Source: Ostreococcus lucimarinus
Lineage: Eukaryota
NCBI GenBank assembly: GCA_000092065.1
Contig: CP000585.1
DNA length: 64,000 bases
Strand: one strand, 5' to 3'
Of the stretch, positions 16,484-57,435 are shown in pieces. The notes below the pieces were generated by a model, which was not told the origin of the DNA, did no database searches, and saw nothing but the letters and a program-made list of their open reading frames with translations. Positions within the stretch are counted from its first letter, which is position 1, and every line of letters starts with the position of its first letter. A program made the position numbers and the translations under genes.

Positions 16484-16570
16484 CTCGCTGAGTCGTGACT
16501 CGTCAAAATCAAATCGACGTGAGGAATTCGCGCGTCGAGTCGACACACGGCGACGCGCGCGCTCGACTCG
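16484..16570. promoter_or_regulatory. putative bidirectional promoter between MER3-like (-) and patatin-like (+) start codons (about 87 bp)
   Basis: Start codons diverge at 16483 and 16571. Inferred only. Confidence 0.25.
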
Positions 16571-16764
16571 ATGCGCGCGCGACGCGAGACGACGACGGAC
16601 GACGCGAGTCGCGCGTCGGACGCGCGCGACGACGCGTCGACGCCGGAGACGTCGGCGAAACGCGACGCGCGATACGAATATGAGATCGCGTTGGGGAGCA
16701 GTGGATGGTTGTTCGTGTATTACGTCGGCGTCGTCAAGGCGATGCGCGAACGAGGGATGGCGAG
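16571..16764 (+). CDS. patatin-like phospholipase, exon 1
   Basis: ORF 16571..16843 contains IALGSSGWLFVYYVGVVKAMRERGMA, matching the PNPLA glycine-rich ISFAGCGFLGVYHIGV. Donor GTGCGC at 16765. Confidence 0.5.
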
Positions 16765-16926
16765 GTGCGCGTTGAAGATGTTTGCGCGGTGCGCGCGCGG
16801 TTCGGAACGCGACGGCGCGCGAGAGGGTGGTTCGGTGGCGTAAGATGGGGACGCCGACGCCGGACGACGCGTCTCGCGCGACGACGGATGACTGACGAAA
16901 CGGCGGCGATTTTACGATGCGCGCAG

Positions 16927-18313: not shown

Positions 18314-18445
18314 AAACGTAGCCCATCATGTATCAAAAATTAGAACGTCTCGTGTTGTTTATTAAAAACTGATTTGTCATCGCGTGTCGCGCTCTTCGAA
18401 AGAGTCCAGAGGCGTCGACGGAAAAAACGCCGCGGGAAGAATCGT

Positions 18446-19318: not shown

Positions 19319-19400
19319 CGACGGGCAGACGGCGCGCGCGTCACGGTATGAGGCGCGGCCGCGTGTTATCCATCGGCACTCACGCGCGCCCGCGAGCGCG
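19319..19400. promoter_or_regulatory. putative bidirectional promoter, RpiA (-) / SLC4-like (+), 82 bp between start codons
   Basis: Inferred from the divergent start codons at 19318 and 19401. Confidence 0.25.
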
Positions 19401-21860: not shown

Positions 21861-21981
21861 TACCAGTGAGCTTCGGTGCGAGGGGGTTTGGACCGCAATT
21901 GGTAGACGTTTTTAATATTTAGTGAATTTTTGTGCGTTGCACTCATGAATCTTGAATTTCGATGGGTCGACTAACGATTGA

Positions 21982-22722: not shown

Positions 22723-23770
22723 GTCCGCCGCTCACTTCGTCGCCGTCGACGCGCGCAGCGCGAACCCGTGCGCGAACACGAGCACCGCCAGCGCCGCGCC
22801 CACCGGCGCCCCGATCTTAATCCTCGAATCGCTCGACCGCCTGACCGCGATCCCGAGCGCCGGTATCGCCGGCGCGAGCGCGATCGGCCAGAGGTTTCCG
22901 TATTCCACCGCGCGCGTTCGTCTCGCGTCGCGCGCGTCGCTCGCGTCGCGCATGCGCGCGCCGCGATCTGTCGCGCGGGCCGTCGGTCTTCTTCTTCGCG
23001 TTACAATCGATCGTCGCGCGCGCTACGAGCTACGACAGCGCGCTTCTCGCGCCCGCGATCACCACCGCCCATCCACCGAGCACGGCGAACACCACCTGCG
23101 TCGCGTCGCGCGCGTCAGTCGTGGAATTCGCGTCGCATCGGCGTCGAGGGCGTCTCGGATCGATCGATCGATCGCGCGCGTCGCGGCGTCGCGCGATCGA
23201 TCGCGCGTCGCGGTCGCGCGCGACGCGTCGCGAGACGCACGTGCTCCTCCTTCCAATTGCTCGGGTTCATGGGGTCGTGCCACGGGTAGGGCACCTTGGG
23301 CGGCGCGTTCGGGTCGCTCGCGTACGACCGGCGCGCGATCGTCGACGGCGCGCGCGCGGGCGCGTTCGCGAGCGCGCGATGCGCGACGCGACGGAGGGCG
23401 GCGTGCATGACGTCGAGCGACGGCGCGCGAGGGCGACGGTCGAGCGCGGGCGTCGACGAGCGTCGACGAGTGCGGGGGGGGGCGCGAGAGGGCGACGCGC
23501 GGGCGACGACGCGGCGCGGGAGAGGGTTCGAGGAAGGCGCGCGAGCGACGGGCGCGAACATCGATTGGGTGCGCGCGGTGTTTTTCTTCGCCGGGCTGGG
23601 GATCGGGTTGCGCGCGTTCGGCGAGCGGGGGGTGCGGGGACGCGCGAAGACGCGCGCGCGCGACGAAGGCGGGCGACGCGGCGGCGAGCCTTTGTAATAA
23701 TTTGTTGTAATCATCACATCACTAGGCGGCTAGCTATGGTCAAACGCTCGAACGTTCTTTACCGCTTTTT

Positions 23771-24475: not shown

Positions 24476-24699
24476 CTACACGCGCACATCGCCATCGCAC
24501 CGTCTCGTCAGTCTCCACGTCGAGCTTCGATCGCGTCGCGTCTCCCATCGCGCGGTGACTCAGCCGAAGAAATTCAACCATAATATCGTCTAACCTCACG
24601 AGCGTGAACTCATCAGAAGCGCGGATATTTTTATCATCATCGTCACCGATCTCGCATCCCATCGCGTCGCGTCGCGTCGCGTCGCGTCGCTCGACGCAC
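24476..24699 (-). other. spliceosomal intron (about 223 nt) of SF3B4, donor GTGCGT after ...EEDAEY, acceptor TAG before GGTATTAAA
   Basis: Phase-0 junction gives [20 protein letters not shown], matching human [20 protein letters not shown]. Confidence 0.65.
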
Positions 24700-24954: not shown

Positions 24955-25437
24955 TCGTCCGTCAGTCGCCGCATCGCGCGCGCATCGCGCCGCGCGCGTC
25001 GCTCGTCGCGCGATTCGCGTTCGTCGTCGTCGCGCGTCGCCGTCGAATCGCGCGCGAACGCACCCGCGCTCCCACCGACGCTCGCCATCGTCGTCGACGC
25101 CTCGCGCGGTGTCGCGCCTTCTCGTTCGCGCCGTCGCGCGTCGCGCCCTCGCGCGCGCGCGCGCGCGCGAGACGGTCGACGCGCTTCTTTCGCGCGTTCG
25201 CGCGCGCTCGGAGCGCTTTTTCGAGCGTCGCGCGGCGCTGTGCGGCGACCGGGACGCGAATCGCGCCGCGTCCCGGTCGCGCCGCCGCCGCTCGGCGCCG
25301 CATTTCGCGCCTCGCCGCGCGCGCGTCGACGCCCCGTCGCCGAGCCGCGCGCGTCGAGCGCGCGAAACGCCGCGTCGCGGTCGCCTCGCGCGCGCCTCGC
25401 GTCGGTTCGCGCGCTCGACGCGCCGCGCGCGCGCGCC

Positions 25438-27050: not shown

Positions 27051-27128
27051 CGCGCGCGGCGTCGCGATGTGTCGCGACGAATTCAAATTTAAATCCGAGC
27101 TGTCGGCGACACATCTCGACGCACCGCG
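27051..27128. promoter_or_regulatory. putative bidirectional promoter, HUS1-like (-) / RECQL4-like (+), 78 bp between start codons
   Basis: Inferred from the divergent start codons. Confidence 0.25.
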
Positions 27129-32020: not shown

Positions 32021-32653
32021 TCACCGTCGCTCATCACGACGCTCGGAATCGTCGCGGTGGAAATCCCGACTTCGACTTCTACTACGGCTTCGACGCCGCT
32101 CGCGACGCTTCTCCTTCTTCCTTCGCCGCCGTCGACGCTCCGACGCCGAATCTGACGATTCCGAACTCGAATCACTATCATCGCTCGAATCACGTCCTCG
32201 TCGTTTCTTCTTTCTCGACGACTTTTTCCGTCCTCGCCTTCGTTCGTCGTCTTCGTCTTCGTCGCTCCGCGCGTCTCGTCTCCGCCTCGACCCTTTACCC
32301 TTCCTTCCCTCCCCGCTCGTCGACGTCAGCGGCGGTAACCCCAACGCCGCGCGCATCGCCGCCTCCTCCGCCGCTTTCACGCGCGCGAACTCGCTCGCGG
32401 TCGATTTTTCATCCTCCGTCTCCTTGTCCCTGTTGTACCAGTACACGTCTTTGCCTTTGCACCACCTCCCCGTCGTCGCCTTGACGCTGTGCCCCAGGTA
32501 GAACTCGCGATCGGCGCTTTCCTTGACGTCGTTCCACGAGAACTGATCGCGGCCGCCGCGCGTGCCGCCGCGCGCCGGCCCTTCGGCCATTCGCGTCGCG
32601 TTTTGAGGTTTGTCCCAAAACAGCGCGCGCTTTTCGGCTCTTCGGGACGCCAC
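32021..32653 (-). CDS. MMTAG2: MMTAG2-like protein (multiple myeloma tumour-associated protein 2 homologue)
   Basis: GGTRGGRDQFSWNDVKESADREFYLGHSVKATTGRWCKGKDVYWY matches human [45 protein letters not shown]. Arg/Ser/Asp/Lys-rich tail. Confidence 0.7.
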   Translation of the reverse strand: MASRRAEKRALFWDKPQNATRMAEGPARGGTRGGRDQFSWNDVKESADREFYLGHSVKATTGRWCKGKDVYWYNRDKETEDEKSTASEFARVKAAEEAAMRAALGLPPLTSTSGEGRKGKGSRRRRDARSDEDEDDERRRGRKKSSRKKKRRGRDSSDDSDSSSESSDSASERRRRRRKKEKRRERRRSRSRSRSRDFHRDDSERRDERR

Positions 32654-32755
32654 ATCGCGCGTCGTCGCCGGTCGATGTCGCGCGCGCTCGCGGTCTCGAT
32701 CGCGCCGAGCGACAGCGCGCGTCGCGCGCGATCGCGGACGCGAGAGAGAGGCGCG

Positions 32756-33997: not shown

Positions 33998-34043
33998 TCT
34001 CGACGCGCGACGACCATCTATTGTTTTTGATCACTACTGTACA

Positions 34044-34149
34044 CGCGCTACAATTTAGCTACCCACGCGTCGACGGCGGCGCTTCGACCGCGCCTACGCG
34101 CGCTACAATTTAGCTACCCACGCGTCGACGGCGGCGCTTCGACCGCGCC
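34044..34149. repeat. tandem duplication (2 x 51 bp, 4-bp spacer) covering the 3' end and stop of the 34103..34777 ORF
   Basis: cgcgctacaatttagctacccacgcgtcgacggcggcgcttcgaccgcgcc occurs at 34044..34094 and again at 34099..34149. Confidence 0.85.
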
Positions 34150-34777: not shown

Positions 34778-34792
34778 GCGCGCGCGGATGGC

Positions 34793-34908
34793 GATCGATC
34801 CGCGTCAGCGCGCCGTCGACGCGCGCGTATGCGCAAACAGTCACGGGTCGATCGATCCGCGTCAGCACGCGGCGTCGACGTGTGCGCAAACAGTCACGGG
34901 TCGATCGA
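34793..34908. repeat. tandem direct repeat, 2 x about 58 bp
   Basis: Unit gatcgatccgcgtcagcgcgccgtcgacg...gcgcaaacagtcacgggtc. Two adjacent near-identical copies. Confidence 0.8.
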
Positions 34909-34939
34909 CATCTCGAAATCGCCGCGGCGCTACAGTGGA

Positions 34940-35137
34940 CCCGCTTTGAAGGGTGACGAATCGCCATGTAGCGCCGCGCGATTGCACGCTAAAATCGATA
35001 TAGTGTTGGACCGACCGCGACCGACCGACGGGGCGCGACGGCGCGCGCGCGCGCGAGAACCCGCTTTGAAGGGTGACGAATCGCCATGTAGCGCCGCGCG
35101 ATTGAGCTAAAATCGATATAGTGTTGGACCGATCGCG
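34940..35137. repeat. direct repeat, 2 x about 85 bp with 120-bp period, containing an AT-richer core taaaatcgatatagtgttggacc
   Basis: cccgctttgaagggtgacgaatcgccatgtagcgccgcgcgattg..c.taaaatcgatatagtgttggaccga.cgcgac at 34940.. and 35060.. Confidence 0.85.
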
Positions 35138-35189
35138 ACGGCGCGACGGCGCGCGCGCGCGCGCGAGACGCGCGCGCGCGAGCGATCGC

Positions 35190-35300
35190 GACGCGAGACG
35201 CGGGAGACGATGCGGGAGACGTCGCGACGCGAGACGCGGGAGACGACGCGGGCGACGACGCGGGAGACGACGCGACGCGAGACGCGCGACGCGAGGCGCG
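35190..35300. repeat. degenerate 12-mer tandem array (GACGCGGGAGAC-like) in the 5' leader of the giant gene
   Basis: cgcgagacgcgggagacgatgcgggagacgtcgcgacgcgagacgcgggagacgacgcgggcgacgacgcgggagacgacgcgacgcgagacg. The ORF track reads it as a fake RETSRRETRETTRATTRETTRRE N-terminus. Confidence 0.75.
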
Positions 35301-35323
35301 AACGTCGAGGAGGGCACGGGACG

Positions 35324-41300: not shown

Positions 41301-44300
41301 TTAACAAGCCTCCCGTGCCGCGGGGTGCGTTGCCCGAGGCGCCGAGTGACGAGGAAATCGTCGAACAGGTATTTTCAGATCAAGTGGCGTTGGATAGGGT
41401 CACTTTATCAGTCAAGCATAAACGCGTCGAAGAGAAAGACTTTACGGATGACACGACAGTTATCGTAAACGGTGCCGTACTGTTCCCCAGGGATCTCGTC
41501 GAACAATCCAACGACTGCGGACTCTTCAAGGCGACTATTGAAGTATTCGAACCCGAAGGAGAAGTTGAGGAATACCATACGGATGAGCGAGGCTTCTTCA
41601 AGTTTGCTCTCACTCGTGGGAAAACGTTCAACATACGCCCAAAATACAAGAATCACACGATATGCTACGCTGGCAAAACCATAGAGAACGCTGTCGAAGA
41701 CGTGCACACATGCAAAGGACGCAGCGTGGTCAAGACGCTTCCAAACGTTCAAGATGGCAACTTTGTATTTTTCACCGACGTCACGCGAGGTGTCATCGAC
41801 CTTGGACTATACCACGGAGAGTGTGAACGGCGATACAGCGGTGCTGTGTTTAAGATCACGCCGATCAATGGATGCCACGCTCCAAAGTTTGTGAAGAGCG
41901 AAGAAGTTGAAGGGTGGAATGTCGCAAACACCGGGATGAGTGAGGACGCTAAATTTTGGCCGTTCGCCGCCATGGATTACTCGATCAAGCTCGTGTCGGG
42001 GCCTGACGTGAATGGCATCCAACCGTTGATTGAGAATGAGCCGTGGGCGGACGGATGTGGTACGGAGCCTGGCTCGATGGTGGCTTTCTTTCGATCACGA
42101 AACGCCCATGAACGAATGGCGGCCATGCGCGACGACTACGATTTGGTGACAATTCGGTACAAGTATCACGGCTACATTTGCGTTGAGATCGTGGACATTC
42201 CCAAAATACGAGATCCATTGGAAGTCTGTTACGATCCAAACGAAGCGGACGGTAATCTCACGATTCAACATTTCCTCGGAACTACGACTTCCGAAGATTT
42301 GGGCAGCGTGAGCGGTCAGATTCTTCTCCAAGCGAAAGTGTTCGAATTGCATCTTGATCAAGTCGACGGCGAGCCTGTGCTTTCAAAATGCTTTGAAGCG
42401 TTACCTAACAAGGAAGCTCAGACGGGCAGCACTCTGCTCAGTTTCAGACAGTCGGTCACCGATGAAGACGACAATGAGTGCCATCCAAACCGAGGCGGCG
42501 GACCACTGTGTGATTTTGACACGACGATCGAGCCTGCGTCCGAACTCGTCATTTGGAATACAGACGGTGATACCAGCGTGGAGGTCGTCGCTGGTACGCC
42601 TAATCTCGCCGGTAATCATCGACGAACTGTGGAATTCACCATCAAGCGCTTCGATACGTACAAACTCGTCACCGCGTACGCAAAGCGTGAGCTCATACCT
42701 CTGGGCTCGAAACCTCGAGGAGAAGGGCTCTTCGGACCGGACAGTGACGATGTCTACTGGGCGACTGTGCCTTTGGAGGGTTTGGTCTACACCGTCGTGC
42801 ACGATCCACCCGGTGGTCTCTCGTACGCGGAATTATCGACGGGCTCTCAAATTGGACTTCAGTTTGACTTGGTTGGGAAACGTATGGCGAGCGAGGGCAA
42901 AGGTGGGGCGTCGAAGAAACAACTTCCCGAAATCGATAAGTCCGTCGATGTTGGTTTCAACGCCGGATGGATCGCCGAAGGTTCTTTGTCGACGGACCTG
43001 CATTTGATCTCGTCAAAAGGCGAGTTCAAAACTAAAACGGATGGTCCAACGATGCGTATAACGAGCAAAGAAGACAAGGGGTGGAGTCTCGAAACCACGA
43101 CAGAACGAACGATTCGTTCGAGCAAGGACGCAGGTACTCCTGGGAGAGCAGGCGATGTCATTCTCGGCGGTGGTATCGAGCTCGTGTACAAAATATCGGA
43201 CATCTTGGATGTCGTAAACGATGTTCGAACACTCAAAAAGCCTTGCTTGTACGTGTATGGCGAAATCACGTGGTTACCGCGAAAGCCGACGTCGTACATC
43301 ATGAGCGTCGCGTCGATCGAGACACAAGTCATGCCTAATCTGTACTACTTGCGAACGTTGGTGCAGGAAGGTGGCATCGAAGCAGACGGGTCGGAAATGT
43401 TTTATGACTGCGCTTCCGGCGCGACGAGTAAAGAAATGACCAAGTGCACGAAAGAGGATCAAATCGAAGCTTGGATGCAATATCTCGACAACAAGATTGA
43501 CCTTTGGCGTCGAACACTTGAATGGTCTTCTCCGAAAGTGTTCACCATCGATGAGGGTGGTGTGAAGACGAAGTTTTACGAAGCCATCGAGAGAATCACA
43601 AAACCGGCGTCTGATGGTGGTTTTATGCACACGAACTACAAAGTCCAGGTGGAACAATTCAAGAAGGCGTACGCCAGACCGATTAAGGATATTATCGAAG
43701 AGGTCGGCAGTGCTTGGGATTCAAGTTTCTTCATGATGCCTTTCAACGGTATCGGCCCACCACCGTTTTTTGACGACCCGAGAGTAATTGGTGGCGTGGA
43801 TTGGATGCTTGATTCGCGGTACTGGGAGTATGGTAAAGGCGACACAGCTACGTACAGTAGAATCCGTGGGATTACACCTCGGACGGATTCTGACGCGAGA
43901 ATCGCCGCTTTTGCCTCCTTGGATGCCATTGTCAATACCGGAGGCATCATCGACACGGTGACGAAGAATTTAGACGCGCCGAAGAAACTCGCCGCCCGTC
44001 GCAAGGCGGCTGCCGCCGCTGCTGCTAAGATAAGTAAATCGTATGCTGCTAAGCAAAGGCTATTAAAGGCGGCCTCTAAATGGAAAAGTCTTGCAAAGAA
44101 ACCACCGCCGGGATTCATCACGAGATCCGCCCAAAAGCTCACGGCGGCCAAGAACATGGCCACAAAGGCGGCCAAGACCACAGCCGGACAAGTTGCGGGC
44201 GCCATCTTGCTCAGCGCGGCGGTAGCGGGCGCAGTCGCAGCTGGCCCGGCGATGGATCAGATGGGCTACAAGTATGCCGCCTATCCACGCAAGTATTACG

Positions 44301-46834
44301 AGGATGGCATACCGGCATTTGAAGAAAACTTCTTCGACGATGATTCTGGAGTGCTCACAAAAGAAGACCAAGCCAAAGATGAAGACGGGATGCGAGGAGC
44401 CTATACGTGGGGGATGTTCAGTTCGGCGACGAACGATTTGTTGCGACAATTTAAAAGTTGTGCCGGGAGAGAGTGCAATCGCGATGATATCAGAGTCGAA
44501 ACGCTGTCGATGAGCAACACATCTTTCGGCGAAGACTACTTACTTTGGAACACAAATGACGCACCTGATGTGTCGCGGAGGGTCGTGGCGTCCTTCACGG
44601 GTGGACAAGCTGCTACGGGTATGAATGTGACGACGAACGTGAACGCTACAGACGGTGTACCCGACAAGGGGACGTTATTATTGACGTTCGGCGGCGGTGG
44701 TCACACCGCAGATTATTCATTTTCTTCGAATGAAAAGATTGCAGATCTTCACACCAGCCTCGGTGTTCAACTGTCAGCAAAGCAGTCCAACAAATACAAA
44801 CTCAAACTCGGAGGCTTGCTCGGCTCGACCGTTCAACTTGCCATGGCGCTCGGCGGGGTGGACGATGAGGCTGTCTATACCTTCAAAAAGTCATTCGCTG
44901 AAGATCGAACGTTCGCTTGGAACAGACACGCCTCTCTGAAAACGTTGTACAGTCTAGGTGACGCTCAACTCGGAGATAAGTTTGTCGTGCAGGTTGGAGA
45001 AGACGTGCGCTTTGGTACGCCGGTGTTCATCACAAAGGGTGGCAGAAGCTCGTGTCCCGGTGAACCTTTGACGATGTTTCGACAGGCGGGCTTTTCCTTA
45101 TCCAAAGAAACTTCGTTTAACGAAAATCTGAATCCTGATGAAAGTGCTTTGTTACACTTGAAATTGACCAACGAGTCGCCGTACAAGGAAACGTTTCCGC
45201 TCGGAATGCGCATTGTTGACGGTCTCGTGATGTCGGTCCACAAAGTGATTCAGGACATGTACGAAACGCTGGCCAAGGAAGACGTGACAGGGTTGGACGT
45301 TTTGAAAGCCGTCGATAATTCGATCGCGTCGCTCGCTATCGGGAAAGATGCCGACGTCATCAAAACAATGAAAGAAAACGCGCGAGTGGCCGTGGAAGAA
45401 CACTCGGCGACAGCAGTGGACGTCGCAGCGGTGGTTGTACAAGCCTCGCGGAGAGCTCCACCAACGTTTGAAGACTTGCAGAACATCGAGTTCAGTATGG
45501 GTGGAGAGGAAGTATACTTTGGCGACGTATTACCTCTAAAATTTGTGGACGGTGAAGATTTGAAAGTTCAGAAGAAGGTACTTGAGACGTCTTTCGCGCT
45601 TACCGTGACGGCTGCGAGCCCGTCGAGTCTTCGACTGGAGCACGTCGCCGTCGTCGTCATGAGTTTATGCGAACACGAAATCAGCCTAATGTCAAAGTTC
45701 GGTCGAGAACCGATCAGCACGAACACTCTTCCGCTAGGATTGATGACGTGGAATCAAAAGTGTCCGAAAGTCGCCTTCGACGGTTCCACAGTGGCGGATT
45801 ACTTGTTCTCGAGCGTCTCATCTGCCACGCCCAAGCCACTCAAGTTGACCGTCTTCAATCCGGACGGAGCTTTGTTATGGCCTGGCTCTTCGGATGACGT
45901 CCGAGCTATCAACCCGAATCTTCGATTCGTTCGGTTGCAATATCGTCCCGCGAGCGGCGGCGAATGGATCACGGCAAAGTCTGAAGACAGCGATCCAAAG
46001 TTCAGTTACAAGAAAAACCTGTTATGCGACGGGTCACGTCTCGGTGGTTGCACTTTTGACTGGGACGTCAATAACCAGTACGAAAAGCTTCTCAGTGGCT
46101 TTAAGGATAACATTTACGAGTTGAGATTGAAGAACTTTTGCTTTGGCACGGAAAGTCGTCCGATCAGCGCCTTGGCGGACAGCACCGTTCACGAGTACGT
46201 CTCTGATCAAATCCTCACGCTCAGAGTGGACACCAAGACGCCGATTCCCGGCAGGTCGTATCCTTCGTTCAAGCGATTTTACACTGTCGAGTTCCCCGAA
46301 GCGATCGACTGCTCGGATCAAAAAGTTGCCATCACGAAGAAACGCGCATCCTGCGGAGACGACGGGCAAAGCGTCAATCAAGCCGTGAGCGAAGACGCAA
46401 TCAAGTCAGGCTTTGACTTCCAATGCTCCAATAACGAGGTTGGCTTCAAGTGGATGGTTGGATTTCCTAACACTGAAGTGGGTCAGTACGCCGTCGAAGT
46501 GAGCGGTGTTCGTGACGAAGCCGGGAACGCCGCCGCGCCGTTTACCTTCGTCATGGACGCGAACTGCGCGTCTTCTCAAAAGCTGTCCCTCGCGCGCTTC
46601 GGTCTAGGCGCGAAGAAACGGTCGACTGAGGAAACGGGCGATGTGCCAACGAGTGCATTTGACGTTCCAATCACATCGATGCCCGGCACGTGGGTTCTCG
46701 CGGGGTGCTGCCTCGTCGCCGTCTTCGCCGTCGTCGTCGGCGTTTTCCGTCGCGCGCCGCGCGTCGAGGACAAGGAAAAATCTCCACTCTCCTTTGTCGC
46801 CCGTCGACACCCGCCGTACGGCGCGGTGGTGTAA
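35324..46834 (+). CDS. giant secreted/TM-anchored mosaic protein: signal peptide, 3 kringle domains, TSP1 repeats, polyproline (SPPP)n spacers, EF-hand pair, C-terminal TM anchor. Single exon, 3,836 aa.
   Basis: ATG 35324 followed by MRRWRCVDAVVVGAALMLMATVTSALSA. Kringles with CRNPDGEPTIWCYTT..RWEYCDP at three places. TSP1-like WGQWSNECTPTCTSGRRYR and CSAKCGWGKRQKT. PPPPPPPPPPGAAE and SPPPSPPPSPPPSPPPSPPPPPPPSPPPPN. EF-hand-like DFDGSGNVMRSELVDYIE and DRDEDGVLDATEFKDVV. TM near the C-terminus WVLAGCCLVAVFAVVVGVF followed by RRAPR. Confidence 0.8.
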   Translation: MRRWRCVDAVVVGAALMLMATVTSALSARGAGAHRDAEGEGDVGGVVDDAADASRGANETAGNDATAALGWGCDETLRGWRDEGYRGCQTRTRNGRTCQQWDSQSPHGHSRRNCAKGSCGRGNNYCRNPDGEPTIWCYTTNRNVRWEYCDPLPQPVHCAGRWGSYTSCDALCGSGRKYKTYTVTRNAQHGGRSCSYSNGAKHYADCTTSCAAPTVSIGNPLTRVASNTVDFGLSVKHSVACGGDCLTSAWSRRWMVKIFATVRKDGVSCSSYGAYLPCKRWDDFRDDTTHPSQLLGLTTDTGALDPGTYVIEYVAVLNHYITKQELSRTTGTHTFSIERGCESILPSASSDSGVENSELTKYVLLSADDFVRAPCDKLHDVRESIFRKYDTNPTDGVLDYDELDRAIREQGGDGYILKVWNQIRPLRLSLGHFMEAIVAPHTCASSESVQSVSFKSVVYPSTEAGRETTRKDCAKNAGAMAVDWGYGPKNPPKSGDTVCVFVDGVLFQVNEPKNTAPPHSKDHHSEVAGLWTLTKITDKRPVVGAIGDVQPSLVAQFTFDTEREIGDTVRSDRIFSAAPLASGEKARPYISYSGQHISACSGASGGQCIVARGDGFNYVGDSLGGAVAFSAWVRVAESSATTLIEFSGTDGQLRNSFTLVMDCSSSACTLRASYDSVGTGGNLAKKEISAPMRQWVLVGFTLSHNAGLKLFALPDDSTSTTTASHPSWPKDTLPKLPNIKLFSASRGGGQQHIDDVRLYAGVMDMEMFFIARDCGRGTLCAMRAHATPSHRRVVCVFTQVKGAKTGQPACAGALYYDGTAIDVRASMDLAGVFFEFRDTAWEEKSFEIERRAPAVNGNFDSKFDTVVLIEGGLKGCAAKFSSITYIDRDASYTPYSEWLYRITTKNPDSDDANEITYLLSPQLTFRTPWMSQIEGRVLAGASTEGVRNVRMCAEFDTFVTRTPATEDFQADVEYENLAAFKSVTHSNRAQTSTSYVVTDGDDAGKSSNVDANEHIRINLGSWASVSTVEVCHKRLESSATSMFSAHVQDYDPGKSTYFGHDCLMDSVRDVCDETLRGQGGIGYRGCQTKTRSGRTCQQWDSQSPHGHSNRNCAKGSCGNNYCRNPDGAPTIWCYTTDRYKRWEYCDPDPLPHACLTYTCKGTDVNSFHGQYVTVKALTKAQVTEIKVNGRKTKCKYTAVTDDDGEYAMDLKDTSGKLPVKATLHIGAYKEEIFPETTEVLIDSKRNAQGQYPVPKSQAHNVLLILRENFETSELGMLRNDRRTETTSSPHASANGVYVDEFAAMQELGYDEFENADEFENGLQNDQTEYDVHHDGGNETAGNNTTAALGWGCDETLRGWRHEGYRGCQTRTRSGRTCQQWDSQSPHRHSRRNCAKGSCGNNYCRNPDGEPTIWCYTTDRRKRWEYCNPLPQPVNCYGYWGQWSNECTPTCTSGRRYRWRYYRISRYPRHGGLSCSYKNGQKGWGYCPPKPCPVNCDGRFGSWSTCSAKCGWGKRQKTFTIHTAAAHGGQSCSHKNGYTVTENCYSQHCPPPPPPPPPPGAAEVEEFIEWVLLKGVESNRKGHVERTLTGSGWTAGAVSKRAIRGASDTVRGVSAVCKESTSQHRMIAMNSQSTADSTSYQSLDFAIYCFPWNSVSYVRVYERGKAFGNAAKAYSESAVVQIALNDAGKVEYFVDGLKLMTSDQTVTYPLHVDVSLHEQGASLEDVRWTRRVSSPPPSPPPSPPPSPPPSPPPPPPPSPPPPNHELEDVDFDGSGNVMRSELVDYIEAITISSEGGHVIITDDVWAKLDRDEDGVLDATEFKDVVNRIEAQQLVVEPIIVFPLQDAQYMYDFSMFQTSDDAANSGPRTGHVLEGGESCENLMIVRSRSATLPFGNAQWTKFYETLRDEQHRFECRNLSKIEVPAIDVGAVDSTYVIPVLAHKNGTNYLILDTTSVAVHTSNETKALDMMHRMTRDNFRLRVQAQKRLPDILHSFNKPPVPRGALPEAPSDEEIVEQVFSDQVALDRVTLSVKHKRVEEKDFTDDTTVIVNGAVLFPRDLVEQSNDCGLFKATIEVFEPEGEVEEYHTDERGFFKFALTRGKTFNIRPKYKNHTICYAGKTIENAVEDVHTCKGRSVVKTLPNVQDGNFVFFTDVTRGVIDLGLYHGECERRYSGAVFKITPINGCHAPKFVKSEEVEGWNVANTGMSEDAKFWPFAAMDYSIKLVSGPDVNGIQPLIENEPWADGCGTEPGSMVAFFRSRNAHERMAAMRDDYDLVTIRYKYHGYICVEIVDIPKIRDPLEVCYDPNEADGNLTIQHFLGTTTSEDLGSVSGQILLQAKVFELHLDQVDGEPVLSKCFEALPNKEAQTGSTLLSFRQSVTDEDDNECHPNRGGGPLCDFDTTIEPASELVIWNTDGDTSVEVVAGTPNLAGNHRRTVEFTIKRFDTYKLVTAYAKRELIPLGSKPRGEGLFGPDSDDVYWATVPLEGLVYTVVHDPPGGLSYAELSTGSQIGLQFDLVGKRMASEGKGGASKKQLPEIDKSVDVGFNAGWIAEGSLSTDLHLISSKGEFKTKTDGPTMRITSKEDKGWSLETTTERTIRSSKDAGTPGRAGDVILGGGIELVYKISDILDVVNDVRTLKKPCLYVYGEITWLPRKPTSYIMSVASIETQVMPNLYYLRTLVQEGGIEADGSEMFYDCASGATSKEMTKCTKEDQIEAWMQYLDNKIDLWRRTLEWSSPKVFTIDEGGVKTKFYEAIERITKPASDGGFMHTNYKVQVEQFKKAYARPIKDIIEEVGSAWDSSFFMMPFNGIGPPPFFDDPRVIGGVDWMLDSRYWEYGKGDTATYSRIRGITPRTDSDARIAAFASLDAIVNTGGIIDTVTKNLDAPKKLAARRKAAAAAAAKISKSYAAKQRLLKAASKWKSLAKKPPPGFITRSAQKLTAAKNMATKAAKTTAGQVAGAILLSAAVAGAVAAGPAMDQMGYKYAAYPRKYYEDGIPAFEENFFDDDSGVLTKEDQAKDEDGMRGAYTWGMFSSATNDLLRQFKSCAGRECNRDDIRVETLSMSNTSFGEDYLLWNTNDAPDVSRRVVASFTGGQAATGMNVTTNVNATDGVPDKGTLLLTFGGGGHTADYSFSSNEKIADLHTSLGVQLSAKQSNKYKLKLGGLLGSTVQLAMALGGVDDEAVYTFKKSFAEDRTFAWNRHASLKTLYSLGDAQLGDKFVVQVGEDVRFGTPVFITKGGRSSCPGEPLTMFRQAGFSLSKETSFNENLNPDESALLHLKLTNESPYKETFPLGMRIVDGLVMSVHKVIQDMYETLAKEDVTGLDVLKAVDNSIASLAIGKDADVIKTMKENARVAVEEHSATAVDVAAVVVQASRRAPPTFEDLQNIEFSMGGEEVYFGDVLPLKFVDGEDLKVQKKVLETSFALTVTAASPSSLRLEHVAVVVMSLCEHEISLMSKFGREPISTNTLPLGLMTWNQKCPKVAFDGSTVADYLFSSVSSATPKPLKLTVFNPDGALLWPGSSDDVRAINPNLRFVRLQYRPASGGEWITAKSEDSDPKFSYKKNLLCDGSRLGGCTFDWDVNNQYEKLLSGFKDNIYELRLKNFCFGTESRPISALADSTVHEYVSDQILTLRVDTKTPIPGRSYPSFKRFYTVEFPEAIDCSDQKVAITKKRASCGDDGQSVNQAVSEDAIKSGFDFQCSNNEVGFKWMVGFPNTEVGQYAVEVSGVRDEAGNAAAPFTFVMDANCASSQKLSLARFGLGAKKRSTEETGDVPTSAFDVPITSMPGTWVLAGCCLVAVFAVVVGVFRRAPRVEDKEKSPLSFVARRHPPYGAVV
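35507..35776 (+). repeat. kringle-encoding repeat copy 1 (near-identical at nucleotide level to copies 2 and 3)
   Basis: gctcggctggggatgcgacgagacgctccgagggtggagagacgaagggtatcgagggtgccagacgaggacgagg...aacaactactgcagaaatcctgacggcgaacccacgatctggtgctacacgacg. Confidence 0.8.
38536..38766 (+). repeat. kringle-encoding repeat copy 2
   Basis: Same block with a few substitutions (gccaggga..., gacggcgcaccc). Antisense ORF 38432..38644 repeats the MPVGRLRIPLLTRA antisense ORF artefact. Confidence 0.8.
39343..39606 (+). repeat. kringle-encoding repeat copy 3, followed by TSP1 repeats
   Basis: Near-identical to copy 1, including the preceding gacggcgggaac...cgacggccgcgctcggctgggga. Confidence 0.8.
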
Positions 46835-47946: not shown

Positions 47947-48022
47947 TTAGATTAGACTACTAGTGTGAATTAGAGACGGCGACAAAATGATGCTAAGCTA
48001 AACGCTACTGTACGTGCTACGT

Positions 48023-50149
48023 TTACGCGAGTCGTTCGCGGCGCTCGCGCTTCGGTCTCTCCGCCGCCTGTCGCTTCGGGAGCTCGCGATCGAAAACGTC
48101 GTCCCACGACTCTCCACGATGCCGTCCACAAAGAATTTTCACCACGGCGTCGATGTTGAGGACGGTGTGCGTTTGCTCGGGCCTGTGTTCGCGAATGGGT
48201 AATCGCGCGCATCGAAACGAACTCGCGTTCGCTCGCGTCAGGCTCGTCCGCATCCCTCGCGTCGCTAAATCGACGATGCCTCCGACCACGTACACCTTAC
48301 TCGCGTCCACTTCATCCAAAACCTCGGAAGCGTCCGGCGACATGTACACGACGTCGCGCGCGTCGAACGCCTCCTCAACGCTTCGCGGGTCCATCTTCAC
48401 CGAAGACCATCGATCGCTGAAGAAAAACTCTCGCGACTCTTCCGCGATGGGACCGCTGAAGTCACAATACGTCATCGCGAGTGCGTCTTCGCGGTGCGCG
48501 ATGCCGACGCACTCGCAGAGCTGCTTCGCCACGCTGCGTCTCGCTCGCGTGGAATCTTGCTCGTACGAGACGTCCACGGCCACGCGCAAGGCGTCCGGGT
48601 TACTAAACCGTTCCGATAGTTCGACGTTGGACTTCTTCTTCGACTTCTTTTCCCATTGCTTCTCGCTCTTGCCCGCGGCGTTCGCGAGCGCGTCTTCGAC
48701 GGTGAACGCGACGCTCGGCTCGAGCGGCGCCGTCGCCGTCGATCCGAGCGCCGTCGTCATGAACGATTTACCGAATCTGCACAAGCTCACCTCGGTGACG
48801 TTCTCGTACCCCAAAGCGCGCATTTCGTGCGCGATGGGAACACCGCTGATGAAGACGTGCCTCTCGGCGACGTCGCGAAACTTTTCAAGCGCGGGCGCGT
48901 ACTCGGACGCGCTCGCGCCCGGCGCGCTTCTCCCGTCGCCGTCGCCGCCGCCGAGCGCGACGCGGCGACCGAACGGTAAATTCGCGACGAGCGCGCGCAC
49001 GCGCTTACCTTTGCACCCGTACGCATCGTCAAAAGCACCAGGAACCAAAGCGTCGCGCTCGATCACGTTCGGCATCGCCGATGACTCGGGCGCGCGCGCG
49101 ACAAAGTGGCTGAGATTTTGCTTGGCCATGACGACGGCGCCCGGCGACACGTCGCCGCCCGCCGCGGCGAACCCACGCGTCCACGCCGCGTGGAGCATCG
49201 TTCCCGACCCACAACACGGATCGACGATGACGCTGTCACCGCTTCGAGCGTCGAACGCGCGCGGGTCGTGCGCTGAGGCGACGTTGACGCACGCGAGCGC
49301 GATTTCCGCGCGCGTCCCCGCGCTGAAATGCCGCGGCTTTCTCGCCCAATCCACCGCGCGCGCGCTCGGGCTCGACGGCGACGGCGCGTACGTCACCAAA
49401 CCGAACACGTACCCCCCCAAACCCTCCACCACCGCGAATCGCATCGCGTTCGACCGCTCGTCTCGCGAATCGTCGAGCCCGCGCGCGCTCCATCGCGCCA
49501 CGACGCCGCGAAATCGCCTCGACACCTCGTCGCTCGACATCCTCCTCGCGTTCCTCGCCACGCAGTCGTGATAAAACGCCACCGCGCGCGTCTCCACGCG
49601 CACTCTCATTCCCTCGACCGTCTCCAGCAGCTCCTCCGCGCTCGCCGCGCACGCCAACGGCATGATCTCCGCCCGCGTCCCCGCGCACGCCCGCGTCGTC
49701 CCGTCGCCGCCGTTCGCCGCCGCGAACATCCCCGCCTCCATCGCCCGCGCCGCCGGCCTCGTCACCGCCGCCACTTCGCACGCGTACGCGTTGTACAGAT
49801 TCTCGTTCTTGTGCGTCAGCACGATCCTCGGCGTCGTCGTCGTCGTCGTCTCGCGCTTCGTCGTCGTCCCGCCCGCGTCGTCCCTCGCCCACAGCCTCGC
49901 GCACGCCGCCGCGCCCTCGCGCGACGACAGCGCCCAGATCGCTAACACGTCGTCGTCGCACGCGCGTTCGCGGTCGTTCATTCGCACGCGGTCGCGCGCG
50001 CGCGCGAACTCGTCGTGGCGCGCGTCGACGATCGCCGTCGGTGGAAACCGCCCACCCTTCGAGCTCTTCGACGCGCGCGCGCGCACGCGACGACGCGCCG
50101 CGCGGGGCATCGACGCGCGTACGTACGATCGCGCCATCGATCGCGCCAT
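48023..50149 (-). CDS. bifunctional-looking tRNA methyltransferase: N-terminal class-I amino-MTase domain (Trm11/THUMPD/RlmL-like) fused to a C-terminal TRM10-type SPOUT m1G9 MTase domain
   Basis: ORF 48023..51043. N-terminal about 300 aa are Arg-rich and rejected. Start tentative at one of the Mets at 50149, 50137 or 50110. SAM motif I VIVDPCCGSGT and motif IV ALVANLPFG (NPPY-type). C-terminal AVDVSYEQD..VAKQLCEC, DVVYMSPDASEVLDEVDASKVYVVGGIVD, CARLPI and VLNIDAVVKIL collinear with TRMT10A. Confidence 0.62.
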   Translation of the reverse strand: MARSMARSYVRASMPRAARRRVRARASKSSKGGRFPPTAIVDARHDEFARARDRVRMNDRERACDDDVLAIWALSSREGAAACARLWARDDAGGTTTKRETTTTTTPRIVLTHKNENLYNAYACEVAAVTRPAARAMEAGMFAAANGGDGTTRACAGTRAEIMPLACAASAEELLETVEGMRVRVETRAVAFYHDCVARNARRMSSDEVSRRFRGVVARWSARGLDDSRDERSNAMRFAVVEGLGGYVFGLVTYAPSPSSPSARAVDWARKPRHFSAGTRAEIALACVNVASAHDPRAFDARSGDSVIVDPCCGSGTMLHAAWTRGFAAAGGDVSPGAVVMAKQNLSHFVARAPESSAMPNVIERDALVPGAFDDAYGCKGKRVRALVANLPFGRRVALGGGDGDGRSAPGASASEYAPALEKFRDVAERHVFISGVPIAHEMRALGYENVTEVSLCRFGKSFMTTALGSTATAPLEPSVAFTVEDALANAAGKSEKQWEKKSKKKSNVELSERFSNPDALRVAVDVSYEQDSTRARRSVAKQLCECVGIAHREDALAMTYCDFSGPIAEESREFFFSDRWSSVKMDPRSVEEAFDARDVVYMSPDASEVLDEVDASKVYVVGGIVDLATRGMRTSLTRANASSFRCARLPIREHRPEQTHTVLNIDAVVKILCGRHRGESWDDVFDRELPKRQAAERPKRERRERLA

Positions 50150-50218
50150 CGCGCGCGTCGCGCTGTCGCGTCGTCGCGCGCGGACGCGCGAATGAATCAT
50201 CGACCGCACTGCGCGCCG

Positions 50219-51961: not shown

Positions 51962-52031
51962 GCGTTCAGGGCGAATTGTGACGCCGGGCGGTTGGCGCCG
52001 TCGGCGGTGGGTCGGTCGATGGGATTAAAAG

Positions 52032-55000: not shown

Positions 55001-57347
55001 CGCCTTTGAGCGTCGTCGGCGTCGGTGTTCCTGTCATGAGCCAACGTGCATGTGCCTTCAGTGCACACGCCACAGAAAGCTTGGCCGTGACAGCTAAAGA
55101 CGCCCCGAGCTGATGGCCTTCATCCAAAATCACTCGCTGCCAAAGAATGCGTAAAATCGGCGTATCAACTTTTGAAAACTCTGTGGAAAGTCGATTGATG
55201 GGCATGATGACAATGTCAAAGTCGTTTGCTAAATCTTTCGCATCGACATGCGCCAGATCATTCAAGTGCACGGGTTCCAAGCTACCTTCGGTCTTGTAAA
55301 CTGAGCTGAAGCCGTCCACTTTCGGTGGTTTGTCCAGCACCGCGACGCGCGGGACACCCTCACCGGTGATGTTCCAAGTGCAAAACGATATTTGCTGCAA
55401 CCAATGCTCGATGAGGACACTCGGAATGATGATTAACGTCGCGCTCGATAACCAGACACGCATCGGCTCGCTGCTACTCCCTCTGTTATCGACGACGCGT
55501 ATGGCGTCGTGAAGTGCTTGCTTGTCTAAGATGAGGTCCTCCGTCGCCGACCCGGGCGGCGCGTACGGAATCGCGTTTTCCAACTTGCCGACTCCAGTGT
55601 ACGGTTCCAACCCGAGTGCGCGAAAAATCGGAGGCTGGTCCGAATTTCTGCGAAAGAGTGGCATCGAAAGCGGCATCGCGTGCGACACTTCCTCGGTGTT
55701 TTCTAAAATGTAATCGACGACGTCGCACGTCGCGGCGCGTCCAACGTACACGACGCAGTTTCGAAGAATGCTTTCAAAGTAAGACGTGTTTCGCGCCAAA
55801 CGCGCTGAATCTTCCTTCAACCCCGTGCGCGCGATGAAACCAATGGGGGCGCTGTGTGCCGAGCACTCCAAACGTGTCTGCCAATCTGGAACTTCCACCG
55901 TCGTCGCAGCGGCTAACGCCTCGTACGCTTGTTTCTCTTCTAATTTCGAACGCTTTGCGCTCCTACTCATCGTGCCATCCAACCCATTCTTGCACACCGA
56001 AGCAAAATACCCCACTGGCGTGTTACCGGCTGAGCGTTTGCTTCGCCTCAGGCCGGAAGAGTTACCTCTCGAAGAACTTCCCGCGAACGCGGCAGATGTC
56101 TTCATCGGAGTAATTGCGGGCGTTTCGGCGTCGAGTGTCGGTACGGCAGCCATCACCGCAGGTGAACCGTATCCGCCCGCACCACCGGAGTTTGTGTCTT
56201 CGTAGTACCAACATGATTCCATCTTACGCGCCGTGTAACCGATCGGTGGTGAAGGTCGCCAACCTCGTCGCGCCAGCACGAGCGCGAGCGCAGTCACCGT
56301 CTTCCCCAATCCGGGCTCGTCGCACAGCATTCCTCCTTGCGAGTCTTCGTATACGTCGGGATGGTGATCGCTTAACTCCCCCTTTAAAGTGTGAAGCCAC
56401 AGCACACGACCGTCCTCGCAATCGATTGGCTTCCAAAGTGGATCGAGAATCGGCGGTAGACGAGCGCGTTCGCGCCGTCGCATCCATCCGAGCGCCGCGC
56501 GTTGGTGCGGATGTAAAGTCAACGCCAATCCCGGTGACGTCTCTTCCACGCGCGAACGAAATCCTCTGCACGTACACGCGAGCGTGCTCGCGCACTTCGG
56601 GTCTAAAAATCCTAAAATTCGCTCCACGACGTCCTCTGGCAAATCGCCCGCGCACAAATATCCCGGCGTCGCCGCCTTAATCGTCGCGTGCTCCCGCCGC
56701 ATCTCCGGCCGCAACTCCTCCAACACCGCGCTCAACGTCGCTCGACGATCGCCCACGTGCGTCTGGCATCCTAAAACTCCACAAAACGGTCGCTCATCAC
56801 TCGCCGCCGCCTCCATCGCCTCCGCGTCGAGCGTCGCCGCGTCCCTCGTCGACAAATGTCCAAACGTCGTGATTCGCGCCGCCCGGCTCATCCCTCGCAC
56901 CACCGCTCTCGAGACACCCTCAACCATCATCTCGCATCGACACACGAGCGTCTTCGTCGTCGAAACGTCCGCGCTCGACCCGTCGTCGCGCGTCCGCGCC
57001 GCGCCGTCGTCCAGCGCGCCGACGCACATCACCCGTCCGAGCGCGCCGAACGCCACGAACGCCCGCGCGAACGTTCCCGACGCGCGCACTTCGAACGTCC
57101 TCGCGCTCGCGTCGCTCGCGTCGCTCGCGTCGCGCTCGACGACGCATTCGAACGCGTCCGAGACGAAATCTTGATTCGTCTCGACCGACCTCGGCGCGAC
57201 GCGCAGGACGTCGCCCGCGCCGACGCGCGCGTCGGACGCGCACGTCAGCGCGATGTGCGCGCGCGCGCCATCGCGCGGCGCCATCGCGCGTCGCGGTCGC
57301 GCGGCGAGGCGCGCTCTGACGCGACCGGGACGGCGCCATCGCGGCAC
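52032..57347 (-). CDS. SNF2-family helicase with N-terminal F-box-like motif, RING finger and C-terminal ubiquitin-like region (Arabidopsis At3g54460 / RAD5-SHPRH-like)
   Basis: F-box-like LPEDVVERILGFLDPKCASTLACTCRGFR. SNF2 N-domain LCDEPGLGKT, DEGH box VILDEGHQLG. RING CDLCLHKVLMPLVTPCAHILCCGCV. Helicase C motifs LLNRAAAEGLDLSFVSYVFLMEP and QVISRAHRMGQ. Start could be 57347 or MAPRDG at 57284. Confidence 0.82.
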   Translation of the reverse strand: MPRWRRPGRVRARLAARPRRAMAPRDGARAHIALTCASDARVGAGDVLRVAPRSVETNQDFVSDAFECVVERDASDASDASARTFEVRASGTFARAFVAFGALGRVMCVGALDDGAARTRDDGSSADVSTTKTLVCRCEMMVEGVSRAVVRGMSRAARITTFGHLSTRDAATLDAEAMEAAASDERPFCGVLGCQTHVGDRRATLSAVLEELRPEMRREHATIKAATPGYLCAGDLPEDVVERILGFLDPKCASTLACTCRGFRSRVEETSPGLALTLHPHQRAALGWMRRRERARLPPILDPLWKPIDCEDGRVLWLHTLKGELSDHHPDVYEDSQGGMLCDEPGLGKTVTALALVLARRGWRPSPPIGYTARKMESCWYYEDTNSGGAGGYGSPAVMAAVPTLDAETPAITPMKTSAAFAGSSSRGNSSGLRRSKRSAGNTPVGYFASVCKNGLDGTMSRSAKRSKLEEKQAYEALAAATTVEVPDWQTRLECSAHSAPIGFIARTGLKEDSARLARNTSYFESILRNCVVYVGRAATCDVVDYILENTEEVSHAMPLSMPLFRRNSDQPPIFRALGLEPYTGVGKLENAIPYAPPGSATEDLILDKQALHDAIRVVDNRGSSSEPMRVWLSSATLIIIPSVLIEHWLQQISFCTWNITGEGVPRVAVLDKPPKVDGFSSVYKTEGSLEPVHLNDLAHVDAKDLANDFDIVIMPINRLSTEFSKVDTPILRILWQRVILDEGHQLGASLAVTAKLSVACALKAHARWLMTGTPTPTTLKGAGTAHLQPLLGFLRQPPYGTSAGLWTTAVQRPLEGRDRFAQADAVVRLGDVLRRCMVRTCKSHIELPPLKRTTSMLQFSDVHADSYNDLVAFVKRNLLLADWGDPNHTESLLNPKNVREAAATVTNLREAACVVGQMPITCSSDEFDETILALMQLLKERGFGDEERKARVRRVSPMLMQCKGTCDLCLHKVLMPLVTPCAHILCCGCVMRGPPKGKTLNGKDVEDERVNEPELPPGVHRAPRGCPVCGSAYFMEEDHDNNLNPVQEVPKDLIELQPKLEQHSWKVDESRGGDGVYAQGESSKVDHLLAELRKIGAAVSAEIVKQQDDRDAFFAREANGMSENTPGWSGRLNANAQAREGTTQQGRRRKRMLDAATPLRLRDFTPTAPPPKKCIIYSDFRPHLDTIDLALYGARVPHESITRIGQSRYDREQALKNFKNDPDCAVLLLNRAAAEGLDLSFVSYVFLMEPLSNMSLEQQVISRAHRMGQKDTVRVKVFAMANTAEEIMLDVQSELARNGTKMSLDSLDATTRHDVTEDSEADVAPTVVAESLSRRRILERLELVPSKSSDEAAARKAKAVTDHFERIRNGGDGRVLGNGKKKGEEEEARWMREALEASARELEARASDGGVLGIGSPQSGVPNREEIAEDDESEAWTMRVRDPNDGGAVKDFTLPNAGKTTVSAMRARISSRIGASIDAFVVRCGFPPRALTDRDLCTPIALLGIQANDLINLQAENAPDMHQADATIVTTRAKPKLTKAARAKALDTSVLDAKVQRRLKTVLKQSETSTEMMLQDPDEDPRGAGAGGGAAGAMSIDLLRAAEGGKRAVNDASIRSLQTAFQAMVEERAKESEGNMKCGAARSGAVEYSTLADGRLVVKYEAVDISTGRRQKKTDCVQDIPAAMLPIVLALVAADADTNAAARANLSPPSMAVASPRVFWAVVRHGGVGPHLSFPDALKKIAPKLKFDWHAIDARERRANPRYADYDTSH

Positions 57348-57435
57348 ACGGCGTCGCGCCGCGCCCGACGCCGCGCCGCGCGCGTTGAACGCTCGACGCG
57401 CGCGCCCGCGCGCTCGCGCTCGCGCGCGCCGCGCG
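57348..57435. promoter_or_regulatory. putative bidirectional promoter, SNF2/RING (-) / membrane protein (+), about 88 bp
   Basis: Inferred from the divergent start codons. Confidence 0.2.

Follow-up and report, generated by a model that had tools for sequence, protein, structure and literature searches.

Short spacers between head-to-head genes in a 64-kb window of Ostreococcus lucimarinus and the question of an 80-bp promoter module

Do genes that face each other across about 80 bp in Ostreococcus lucimarinus share a dedicated promoter unit, or is this spacing simply what a compact genome looks like? The question arises from a 64,000-bp stretch of contig CP000585.1 (hereafter, the window), in which an initial annotation had noted five divergent gene pairs of seemingly uniform geometry, with close to 80 bp between start codons, and had proposed a repeated, compact bidirectional promoter module.

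Gene pairs and start codons

To place the gene models, GenBank annotation was inferred by exact-sequence protein look-ups, and proteins of the window matched ABO96381, ABO96383, ABO96136, ABO96382 and ABO96390 exactly (O. lucimarinus CCE9901, nuclear). Relatives were compared by targeted alignments instead of tblastx of the whole window, which returned noise in this GC-rich DNA with all six frames scoring. Strain variation was informative for delimiting coding sequences only at TRM10/SGF11 and SNF2/membrane protein, the strains being near-identical at MER3/patatin and RpiA/SLC4. The five listed pairs all lie on opposite strands with their 5' ends facing, less than 1 kb apart and with ATG-to-ATG distances of 42-151 bp. 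These head-to-head pairs are genuine, and the partners necessarily have a very small promoter region in common. ATG codons are indeed present at 16483(-), 16571(+), 19318(-), 19401(+), 27050(-), 27129(+) and 57436(+).

Table 1 Coordinates of the divergent spacers and associated features in the window (spacers run between start codons; strands of paired genes in brackets).
Feature	Position	Strand	Length	Basis or remark
PhzF-like(-)/DOCK(+) spacer	5993..6734		742 bp	upstream DOCK exons possible
MER3/HFM1 favoured start codon	16352..16354	-		GenBank annotation and orthologue
MER3(-)/patatin(+) gap	16484..16570		87 bp	upstream in-frame MER3 ATG 16483 to patatin ATG 16571
RpiA(-)/SLC4(+) spacer	19319..19400		82 bp	orthologue start alignment and strains
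RRM protein(-)/NIP7(+) spacer	24955..25437		483 bp	
Hus1(-)/RECQL4(+) spacer	27051..27128		78 bp	the sole fully robust case
MMtag(-)/Fe-ADH(+) spacer	32591..32674		84 bp	first-ATG rule; missed by the initial annotation
224-aa gene(-)/3874-aa gene(+) spacer	34778..35209		432 bp	holds tandem duplications
TRM10-like methyltransferase(-)/SGF11(+) start region	50138..50218		42-81 bp	ATG 50137 or 50149 with ATG 50192 or 50219
SNF2-family helicase(-)/membrane protein(+) spacer	57285..57435		151 bp	85% GC
Membrane-protein gene intron	57655..57799	+	145 nt	GT..AG
GST(-)/188-aa protein(+) spacer	63556..63689		134 bp	unique ATG in both genes; off the 80-bp pattern

Two of the five distances were confirmed. 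At Hus1/RECQL4 each start codon is the first ATG after an in-frame stop, and the Hus1 initiator methionine aligns with position 1 of the Pfam Hus1 profile and agrees with GenBank ABO96381. At RpiA/SLC4 the RpiA ATG aligns with the sole ATG of the orthologue in the sister species (L002), the SLC4 ATG lies three codons from the L002 start, and the identical distance was called in eight strain contigs.

For MER3/patatin the arithmetic of the initial annotation is right and the patatin start is secure (the spliced 526-aa model equals ABO96136), but the MER3 codon used is merely an upstream in-frame ATG. GenBank MER3 (ABO96376) begins MYARPRR at 16354, and in the sister species an in-frame stop precedes the corresponding ATG. 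From there the spacer spans 16355-16570, i.e., 216 bp. The TRM10/SGF11 gap, given initially as about 45-81 bp, is short as claimed, but ATG 50110, one of the TRM10 starts considered, is missing from four other strains. The strain alignment also showed a 5-bp indel just upstream of TRM10 ATG 50137 and a 12-bp in-frame indel after SGF11 50219. The 88 bp assigned to SNF2/membrane protein was refuted, as the codon at 57347 is GTG and the sole in-frame ATG of the SNF2 gene is at 57284. The membrane-protein ATG is contained in the spliced RNA contigs L038 and L039; the intron of this gene was predicted from non-triplet indels among strains, and both the GenBank junction GGEQ|IRPL and these two contigs confirmed it. 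A tRNA-Arg(GCG) predicted by ARAGORN at 57369-57463, in the same spacer, is likely a false positive (95 nt, 85% GC, without an Rfam tRNA match at gathering score).

Further divergent pairs were absent from the first list. At MMtag/Fe-ADH the MMtag ATG 32590 is unique (protein ABO96383), and GenBank Fe-ADH (ABO96140) uses ATG 32756, which would lengthen the spacer to 165 bp; in L007, which has a 66-bp spacer, the first Fe-ADH ATG is conserved together with the 27-aa extension that results from it. The GST protein near the window end is ABO96390; its pair (134 bp) and one pair beyond the window edge, separated by 33 bp (first ATG) or 90 bp, served as out-of-sample cases. Among the long spacers, that of RRM protein/NIP7 is likewise long in the sister species (438 bp by gene-caller coordinates).

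ATG-to-ATG distances in O. lucimarinus thus hinge heavily on start-codon choice, and the pattern could be mainly an artefact of that choice and of small numbers, the ATG nearest the neighbour having been picked among several in frame. Two of the five initial start choices (SNF2 57347 and MER3 16483) fit the pattern by selection, the first being a GTG and the second differing from the start supported by GenBank and the orthologue, and TRM10/SGF11 had been entered as a range. Nevertheless, we consider this reading very unlikely, as Hus1/RECQL4 and RpiA/SLC4 are robust and at MMtag/Fe-ADH the first ATG is conserved between clades, which supports the distance there. These three cases imply that the short spacers are real, even if their regularity is not. 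The practical yield is a set of gene-model corrections at the N-termini of Fe-ADH and the membrane protein and at the SNF2 and MER3 starts.

Gap lengths across neighbour orientations

From about 72 kb (the 64-kb window plus L023), only 11 divergent pairs entered the gap sample; the region at 22.7-23.8 kb, with several small conserved ORFs but no resolvable gene models, was left out of the statistics. Divergent gaps ranged from 33 to 742 bp with a median of 87 bp, tandem gaps from 46 to 497 bp, and the promoter-free convergent (tail-to-tail) gaps from 29 to 132 bp with a median of 94 bp. Divergent gaps did not differ in length from all other gaps (Mann-Whitney p=0.73).

If the first ATG is taken on each side, four divergent spacers fall inside 10 bp (78, 82, 84 and 87 bp), which is nominally unusual. 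They speak for an alternative in which about 80 bp is the minimum for a real bidirectional promoter unit, i.e., one nucleosome-free region or a shared pre-initiation site, onto which selection for compaction would have pushed many O. lucimarinus divergent pairs, with a genome-wide pile-up at 78-88 bp. The scan statistic for at least four of 11 divergent values in some 10-bp bin gave P=0.03-0.12, reaching 0.03 under one null, and alternative ATG choices, as the artefact reading would have it, left only three of the 11 in one bin. Non-divergent gaps cluster as tightly, with four within 104-110 bp. The clustering of divergent gaps near 80 bp is therefore not beyond chance. Of the five-pair geometry first described, the 78-bp and 82-bp cases are solid, the 87-bp case depends on a doubtful MER3 start, and the remaining two fall elsewhere or over a range.

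Several lengths also argue directly against such a unit. Shorter divergent gaps occur (42-81 bp at TRM10/SGF11, 33 bp by first ATG beyond the window edge, and 24 bp for the TRM10/SGF11 orthologue in L007), and the 87-bp value becomes 216 bp with the annotated, orthologue-backed MER3 start. A repeated module of about 80 bp is not supported, because tail-to-tail gaps, which hold no promoter, share the same length distribution and are as short and as clustered.

Spacer sequences, orthologous spacing and transcripts

The shared motif that the initial annotation expected was not found: 5- to 8-mers compared over six spacers against dinucleotide shuffles gave nothing above expectation. The commonest shared k-mers were CG-rich words at shuffle frequency, and AT-containing words occurred in at most two of the six. 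Two candidate common elements were rejected. GAATTC is present in two spacers, yet with 21 occurrences in the window it reflects AT patches only; CGACACA is not enriched (12 matches, 12.7 expected).

The Hus1/RECQL4 spacer has a near-palindromic sequence, with the AT-rich core GAATTCAAATTTAAAT at the centre of symmetry and a CAGCTG-like box after it. Its 71% complementarity was equalled in none of 1000 shuffles, as would be expected of a symmetric promoter, and the symmetric 78-bp spacer is an experimentally testable candidate. No significant palindromy was found in the other spacers, which, like the lack of a common motif, speaks against a general 80-bp unit.

Orthologous spacing was also compared. 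At 97-100% identity the Hus1/RECQL4 spacers measure 78, 79, 83 and 78 bp, and this constancy of 78-83 bp within O. lucimarinus-like strains is what a fixed unit would predict. Against it stands the length drift in more diverged orthologues, from 87 bp (~90% identity) to 113 bp (70%), 122 bp (67%) and 140 bp (63%), although the AT core and AGCTGTC/CAGCTG are kept across clades over the whole 78-140 bp range. In the sister species the RpiA/SLC4 spacer is 183-264 bp and the MER3/patatin spacer 132 bp. In sum, gene models and distances revealed spacers without a common motif, with variable orthologous spacing, and no shorter than promoter-free gaps, so that none of three features of a fixed-geometry module (a shared motif, conserved orthologous spacing, and a gap distribution distinct from that of promoter-free gaps) was found. 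We therefore regard a minimal 80-bp promoter unit as unlikely, and the proposal of a repeated module is not supported on these three counts.

The remark that such spacing leaves little room for 5'UTRs unless transcripts overlap was borne out. One spliced contig derived from RNA of a close strain (L038) continues without a break from one gene of a divergent pair into the other, through their 159-bp spacer, and overlapping UTRs are reported in O. tauri (PMC4378021). Out-of-frame upstream ATGs lie within spacers at 27067(+), 27114(-), 57339(-) and 63584(+), which under a scanning model argues for 5'UTRs shorter than about 60-105 nt. The 5'UTRs must be very short, or else the transcripts overlap. 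Transcripts that run into neighbouring genes are further implied by tandem neighbours 46-70 bp apart and convergent ones 29-55 bp apart.

Overall, the ~80-bp head-to-head gaps most probably reflect ordinary compaction, in which promoter elements are specific to each gene and transcripts overlap, and not a special promoter unit. Under such compaction, the spaces separating coding sequences would nearly all be compressed to roughly 30-150 bp, irrespective of gene orientation, and the ~80-bp divergent gaps would be the mode of the general gap-length distribution. Each short spacer may act as a shared nucleosome-free promoter region carrying its own gene-specific elements, of which the AT-rich core and CAGCTG-like box of Hus1/RECQL4 would be an example. 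Transcription start sites (TSSs) may lie within a few tens of bases of either ATG, or in the 5' end of the neighbour, so that divergent transcripts would abut or overlap. That divergent pairs throughout the O. lucimarinus genome should prefer one discrete ATG-to-ATG distance of about 78-88 bp seems quite improbable; streamlining would then have arrived at a minimal, single nucleosome-free bidirectional initiation unit, and promoter size would come in fixed steps instead of varying continuously. If the regularity were true genome-wide, it would define how small a functional bidirectional promoter can be in a free-living eukaryote, useful for picoalgal synthetic biology and for models of promoter architecture.

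Comparison with known systems

Compaction and pervasive head-to-head pairs are established features of O. tauri and O. lucimarinus. Both Ostreococcus genomes have intergenic regions of less than 200 bp (PMC2850359), 2288 bidirectional transcript pairs were described in O. tauri (PMC4035068), and overlapping UTRs cause concatenated transcripts in its RNA-seq assembly (PMC4378021). At the ATG, 5mCG has a minimum and 6mA a maximum (bioRxiv 10.64898/2026.07.10.737489). The window shows exactly this compaction and pairing with no substantive difference, and the finding restates what is already known of Ostreococcus. None of PMC2850359, PMC4035068 and PMC4378021 reports that divergent pairs peak specifically at 80 bp, and the window data do not establish such a mode. 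As summarized in PMC2850359, the footprinting of Piganeau et al. 2009 compared orthologous Ostreococcus intergenic regions by neighbour orientation and found bidirectional regulatory elements to be rarer than in yeast. The conserved footprints here are the AT core with the CAGCTG-like box, TTTGAGG and GCGCGCTTTTCG in the Hus1/RECQL4 and MMtag/Fe-ADH spacers.

The pairs resemble yeast and mammalian bidirectional promoters in their head-to-head arrangement around a short, GC/CpG-rich shared region, and in that some partners are functionally related, Hus1 and RECQL4 both being DNA-damage/replication genes. In promoters of that kind the two TSSs lie within 1 kb, typically 100-200 bp from each other, and share a CpG island or a region depleted of nucleosomes. 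The spacers here are far shorter, though measured from ATG to ATG rather than from TSS to TSS. In microsporidia and nucleomorphs, gaps are too short for separate promoters, UTRs and terminators, and transcripts enter neighbouring genes; the short tandem and convergent gaps of the window imply the same overlap. Unlike those genomes, Ostreococcus belongs to a free-living organism and retains introns and a normal gene content.

Start codons of the divergent pairs

The initial annotation took at least five head-to-head gene pairs with about 80-90 bp between start codons to suggest a compact shared bidirectional promoter module; part of what it observed holds, and the evidence does not support the module reading. 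The window DNA (~60% G+C, CG dinucleotides abundant) has long ORFs crowded on both strands and few introns, and belongs to an 847,696-bp chromosome of O. lucimarinus CCE9901. Exact-sequence matches were obtained for Hus1 (ABO96381), MMtag (ABO96383), NIP7 (ABO96138), CCDC6 (ABO96386), a 416-aa protein (ABO96382), GST (ABO96390), and our spliced patatin model (ABO96136). A JGI contig (L006) was 99.6% identical to the window across 20.6 kb.

Start codons, gaps (start codon to start codon), and other features of the window
Feature	Coordinates (strand)	Gap (bp)	Orthologous spacer (bp)
Hus1(-)/RECQL4(+)	27050/27129	78	
RpiA(-)/SLC4(+)	19318/19401	82, well supported	183-264 (L002)
MMtag(-)/Fe-ADH(+)		84	66 (L007)
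TRM10(-)/SGF11(+)	50137 or 50149/50192 or 50219	42-81	24 (L007)
SNF2(-)/membrane protein(+)	57284/57436	151	202 (L007)
MER3(-)/patatin(+)	16354 or 16483/16571	216 or 87	132 (L002)
GST/188-aa protein		134	
141-aa protein/bilin reductase	just beyond window (L023)	33 or 90	
MER3 intron	16016-16113		
MER3 second intron	16182-16271 (-)		
Patatin intron	16765-16926		
Patatin deletion (L017)	16576-16632		
Fe-ADH extension	32675-32755		
SGF11 insertions (L006, L012-L014)	~50222 and 50232		
Membrane-protein intron	57655-57799		
Segment omitted by ABO96145	57436-57567		
tRNA-Arg(GCG), rejected	57369-57463 (-)		
Out-of-frame spacer ATGs	27067 (+), 27114 (-), 57339 (-), 63584 (+)		
(GATT)7 microsatellite	5996-6023		
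Small ORFs	22732-23340 (-)		
snoRNA U36a	24556-24645 (-)		
2 x 55 bp repeat	34040-34157		
Tandem duplications	34792-35176		
3874-aa ORF	35210-46834 (+)		

The Hus1/RECQL4 gap stands with both start codons. The Hus1 ATG is the only one downstream of an in-frame stop and matches Pfam Hus1 position 1, the orthologue M1, and the GenBank protein start, and that of RECQL4 is the first in its ORF. The RpiA/SLC4 gap likewise appears sound, since eight strain contigs were called identically; the RpiA ATG aligns with the sole available ATG of the sister-species orthologue (L002), the SLC4 ATG is 3 codons from the orthologous start, and alternative in-frame ATGs fall within the coding sequence of the neighbour gene. 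For MMtag/Fe-ADH, the MMtag ATG is unique. GenBank starts Fe-ADH at the second ATG; another Ostreococcus clade keeps the first ATG together with a 27-residue extension, and the start of ABO96140 (413 aa) is probably too far downstream.

The TRM10-like methyltransferase has in-frame ATGs at 50200, 50149, 50137, and 50110. Strain alignments place 50110 in the window strain only, a strain contig (L012) has a stop ahead of the start region, and a 5-bp indel lies immediately upstream of 50137, which together point to 50137 or 50149. These starts give a gap of 42-81 bp; the initial annotation gave ~45-81 bp. SGF11 varies near its start codon among L006 and L012-L014: three strains carry a 12-bp in-frame insertion after ATG 50219, and L006 has a 1-bp insertion, perhaps an assembly error, that would put SGF11 out of frame.

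The proposed SNF2 start, 57347, is a GTG, and the sole in-frame ATG widens the supposed 88 bp to 151 bp. The 145-nt membrane-protein intron, predicted from non-triplet indels between strains, was confirmed by the GenBank junction and two spliced contigs, both including ATG 57436. These RNA contigs carry an upstream ATG giving 285 aa, and the start of GenBank ABO96145 (241 aa) is probably too far downstream. A 95-nt ARAGORN tRNA call spanning this spacer and ATG 57436 lies in DNA of 85% G+C and was not matched by any Rfam tRNA model, so it is probably a false positive. Next to the SNF2 and membrane-protein genes, some O. lucimarinus-like strains each carry other neighbours than the window does (L013 1-4870; L038 1-1627), reflecting structural variation at this junction or chimeric assembly.

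The patatin ATG is the first following stops and, with the intron, gives ABO96136 exactly. Because the main MER3 ORF opens with the Walker A motif, the gene requires a further exon upstream; it was located (…YFNSIQSEMLEFLVNTRRSFVM before the junction, SAPTGSGKT after it) and has two in-frame ATGs. GenBank ABO96376 starts at 16354, and L002 has an in-frame stop directly upstream of the equivalent ATG; the claimed 87 bp therefore requires the non-conserved upstream ATG 16483, and the distance is otherwise 216 bp. GenBank also splices out a 90-nt in-frame, stop-free segment of exon 1 (GTGCGT…GTAG), supported as a second intron because L002 shifts frame at the same place. In one strain (L017), patatin exon 1 lacks 57 bp near the start codon, and the reading frame is kept.

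Gap lengths and spacer conservation

Gaps were short in all orientations: 29, 55, 76, 81, 85, 104, 104, 105, 121, and 132 bp for convergent genes, and 46, 62, 70, 110, and 139 bp plus a few longer for tandem genes. Three divergent spacers are long (432, 483, and 742 bp), and GST/188-aa protein has one possible ATG per side. Divergent and remaining gaps did not differ in length (Mann-Whitney p=0.73). When 11 values are drawn from smooth curves fitted to the local gap lengths, the probability that at least 4 fall within one 10-bp bin is 0.03-0.12, and non-divergent gaps cluster as tightly (four at 104-110 bp). Since tail-to-tail gaps hold no promoter, the mode at ~80-100 bp indicates compaction of the genome at large rather than a promoter unit. 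Some divergent gaps are shorter still, so no strict lower limit exists near 78 bp. A discrete genome-wide peak near 80 bp seems improbable.

The spacers shared no k-mers beyond the level of dinucleotide-preserving shuffles. Those of MER3/patatin, Hus1/RECQL4, and MMtag/Fe-ADH have an AT-rich patch, and the other three are 74-85% G+C. Palindromy was confined to the spacer of Hus1/RECQL4 (71% complementarity, centred 1 nt off the midpoint; reached in 0/1000 shuffles). Among 14 metagenomic loci and L002, this pair was head-to-head wherever enough upstream sequence was available to see RECQL4. Its spacer was 78, 79, 83, and 78 bp at 97-100% Hus1 identity, 87 bp at ~90%, 113 bp at 70%, 122 bp at 67%, and 140 bp at 63% (L002), with an AT-rich core and AGCTGTC/CAGCTG box kept in all. 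Orthologous spacers conserve elements, not geometry.

Several neighbouring features were observed. The 432-bp spacer, upstream of the intron-less 3874-aa ORF, contains two tandem duplications, one of 53 bp and one of ~119 bp (two copies each, the latter at 90% identity), and another repeat runs into the 3' end of a 224-aa gene. Nothing equivalent to this ORF is present at the syntenic locus of another Ostreococcus clade (L007 14020-15917), and it may be lineage-specific; in L007, a CCDC61-like and a 248-aa gene are head-to-head (94 bp, gene-caller coordinates). The microsatellite borders the PhzF-like start codon on its upstream side and lies at the margin of the 742-bp spacer. A predicted C/D-box snoRNA (Rfam, 68.9 bits; gathering score 45) sits in the 185-bp gap separating two RRM-protein genes, adjoining the stop codon of the upstream gene. 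A 246-aa gene is preceded by several small ORFs (~72-101 aa) that are also conserved in L002, one of them 9 bp from the ATG of that gene; they may be exons of a single gene or separate tiny genes.

Transcription across short spacers and known compaction

A 78-bp spacer would leave two 5'UTRs each very short, or overlapping. Under the scanning model, the out-of-frame spacer ATGs would be deleterious within a 5'UTR, which would probably place transcription start sites within ~60-105 nt of each ATG. A close-strain contig (L038), RNA-derived because it lacks the intron, runs unbroken from one divergent gene through a 159-bp spacer into its partner. Together with UTR overlap in O. tauri (PMC4378021), this upholds the earlier remark that almost no 5'UTR room exists unless transcripts overlap.

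The O. tauri literature supports very short or overlapping 5'UTRs: RNA-seq assemblies fuse neighbours, with overlapping UTRs as the cause (PMC4378021), and 2288 bidirectional transcript pairs are reported (PMC4035068). Right at the ATG, 5mCG is at its minimum and 6mA at its maximum (bioRxiv 10.64898/2026.07.10.737489). Intergenic regions average <200 bp (PMC2850359, PMC3236181), and the pattern seen here is the compaction already known from Ostreococcus genomes.
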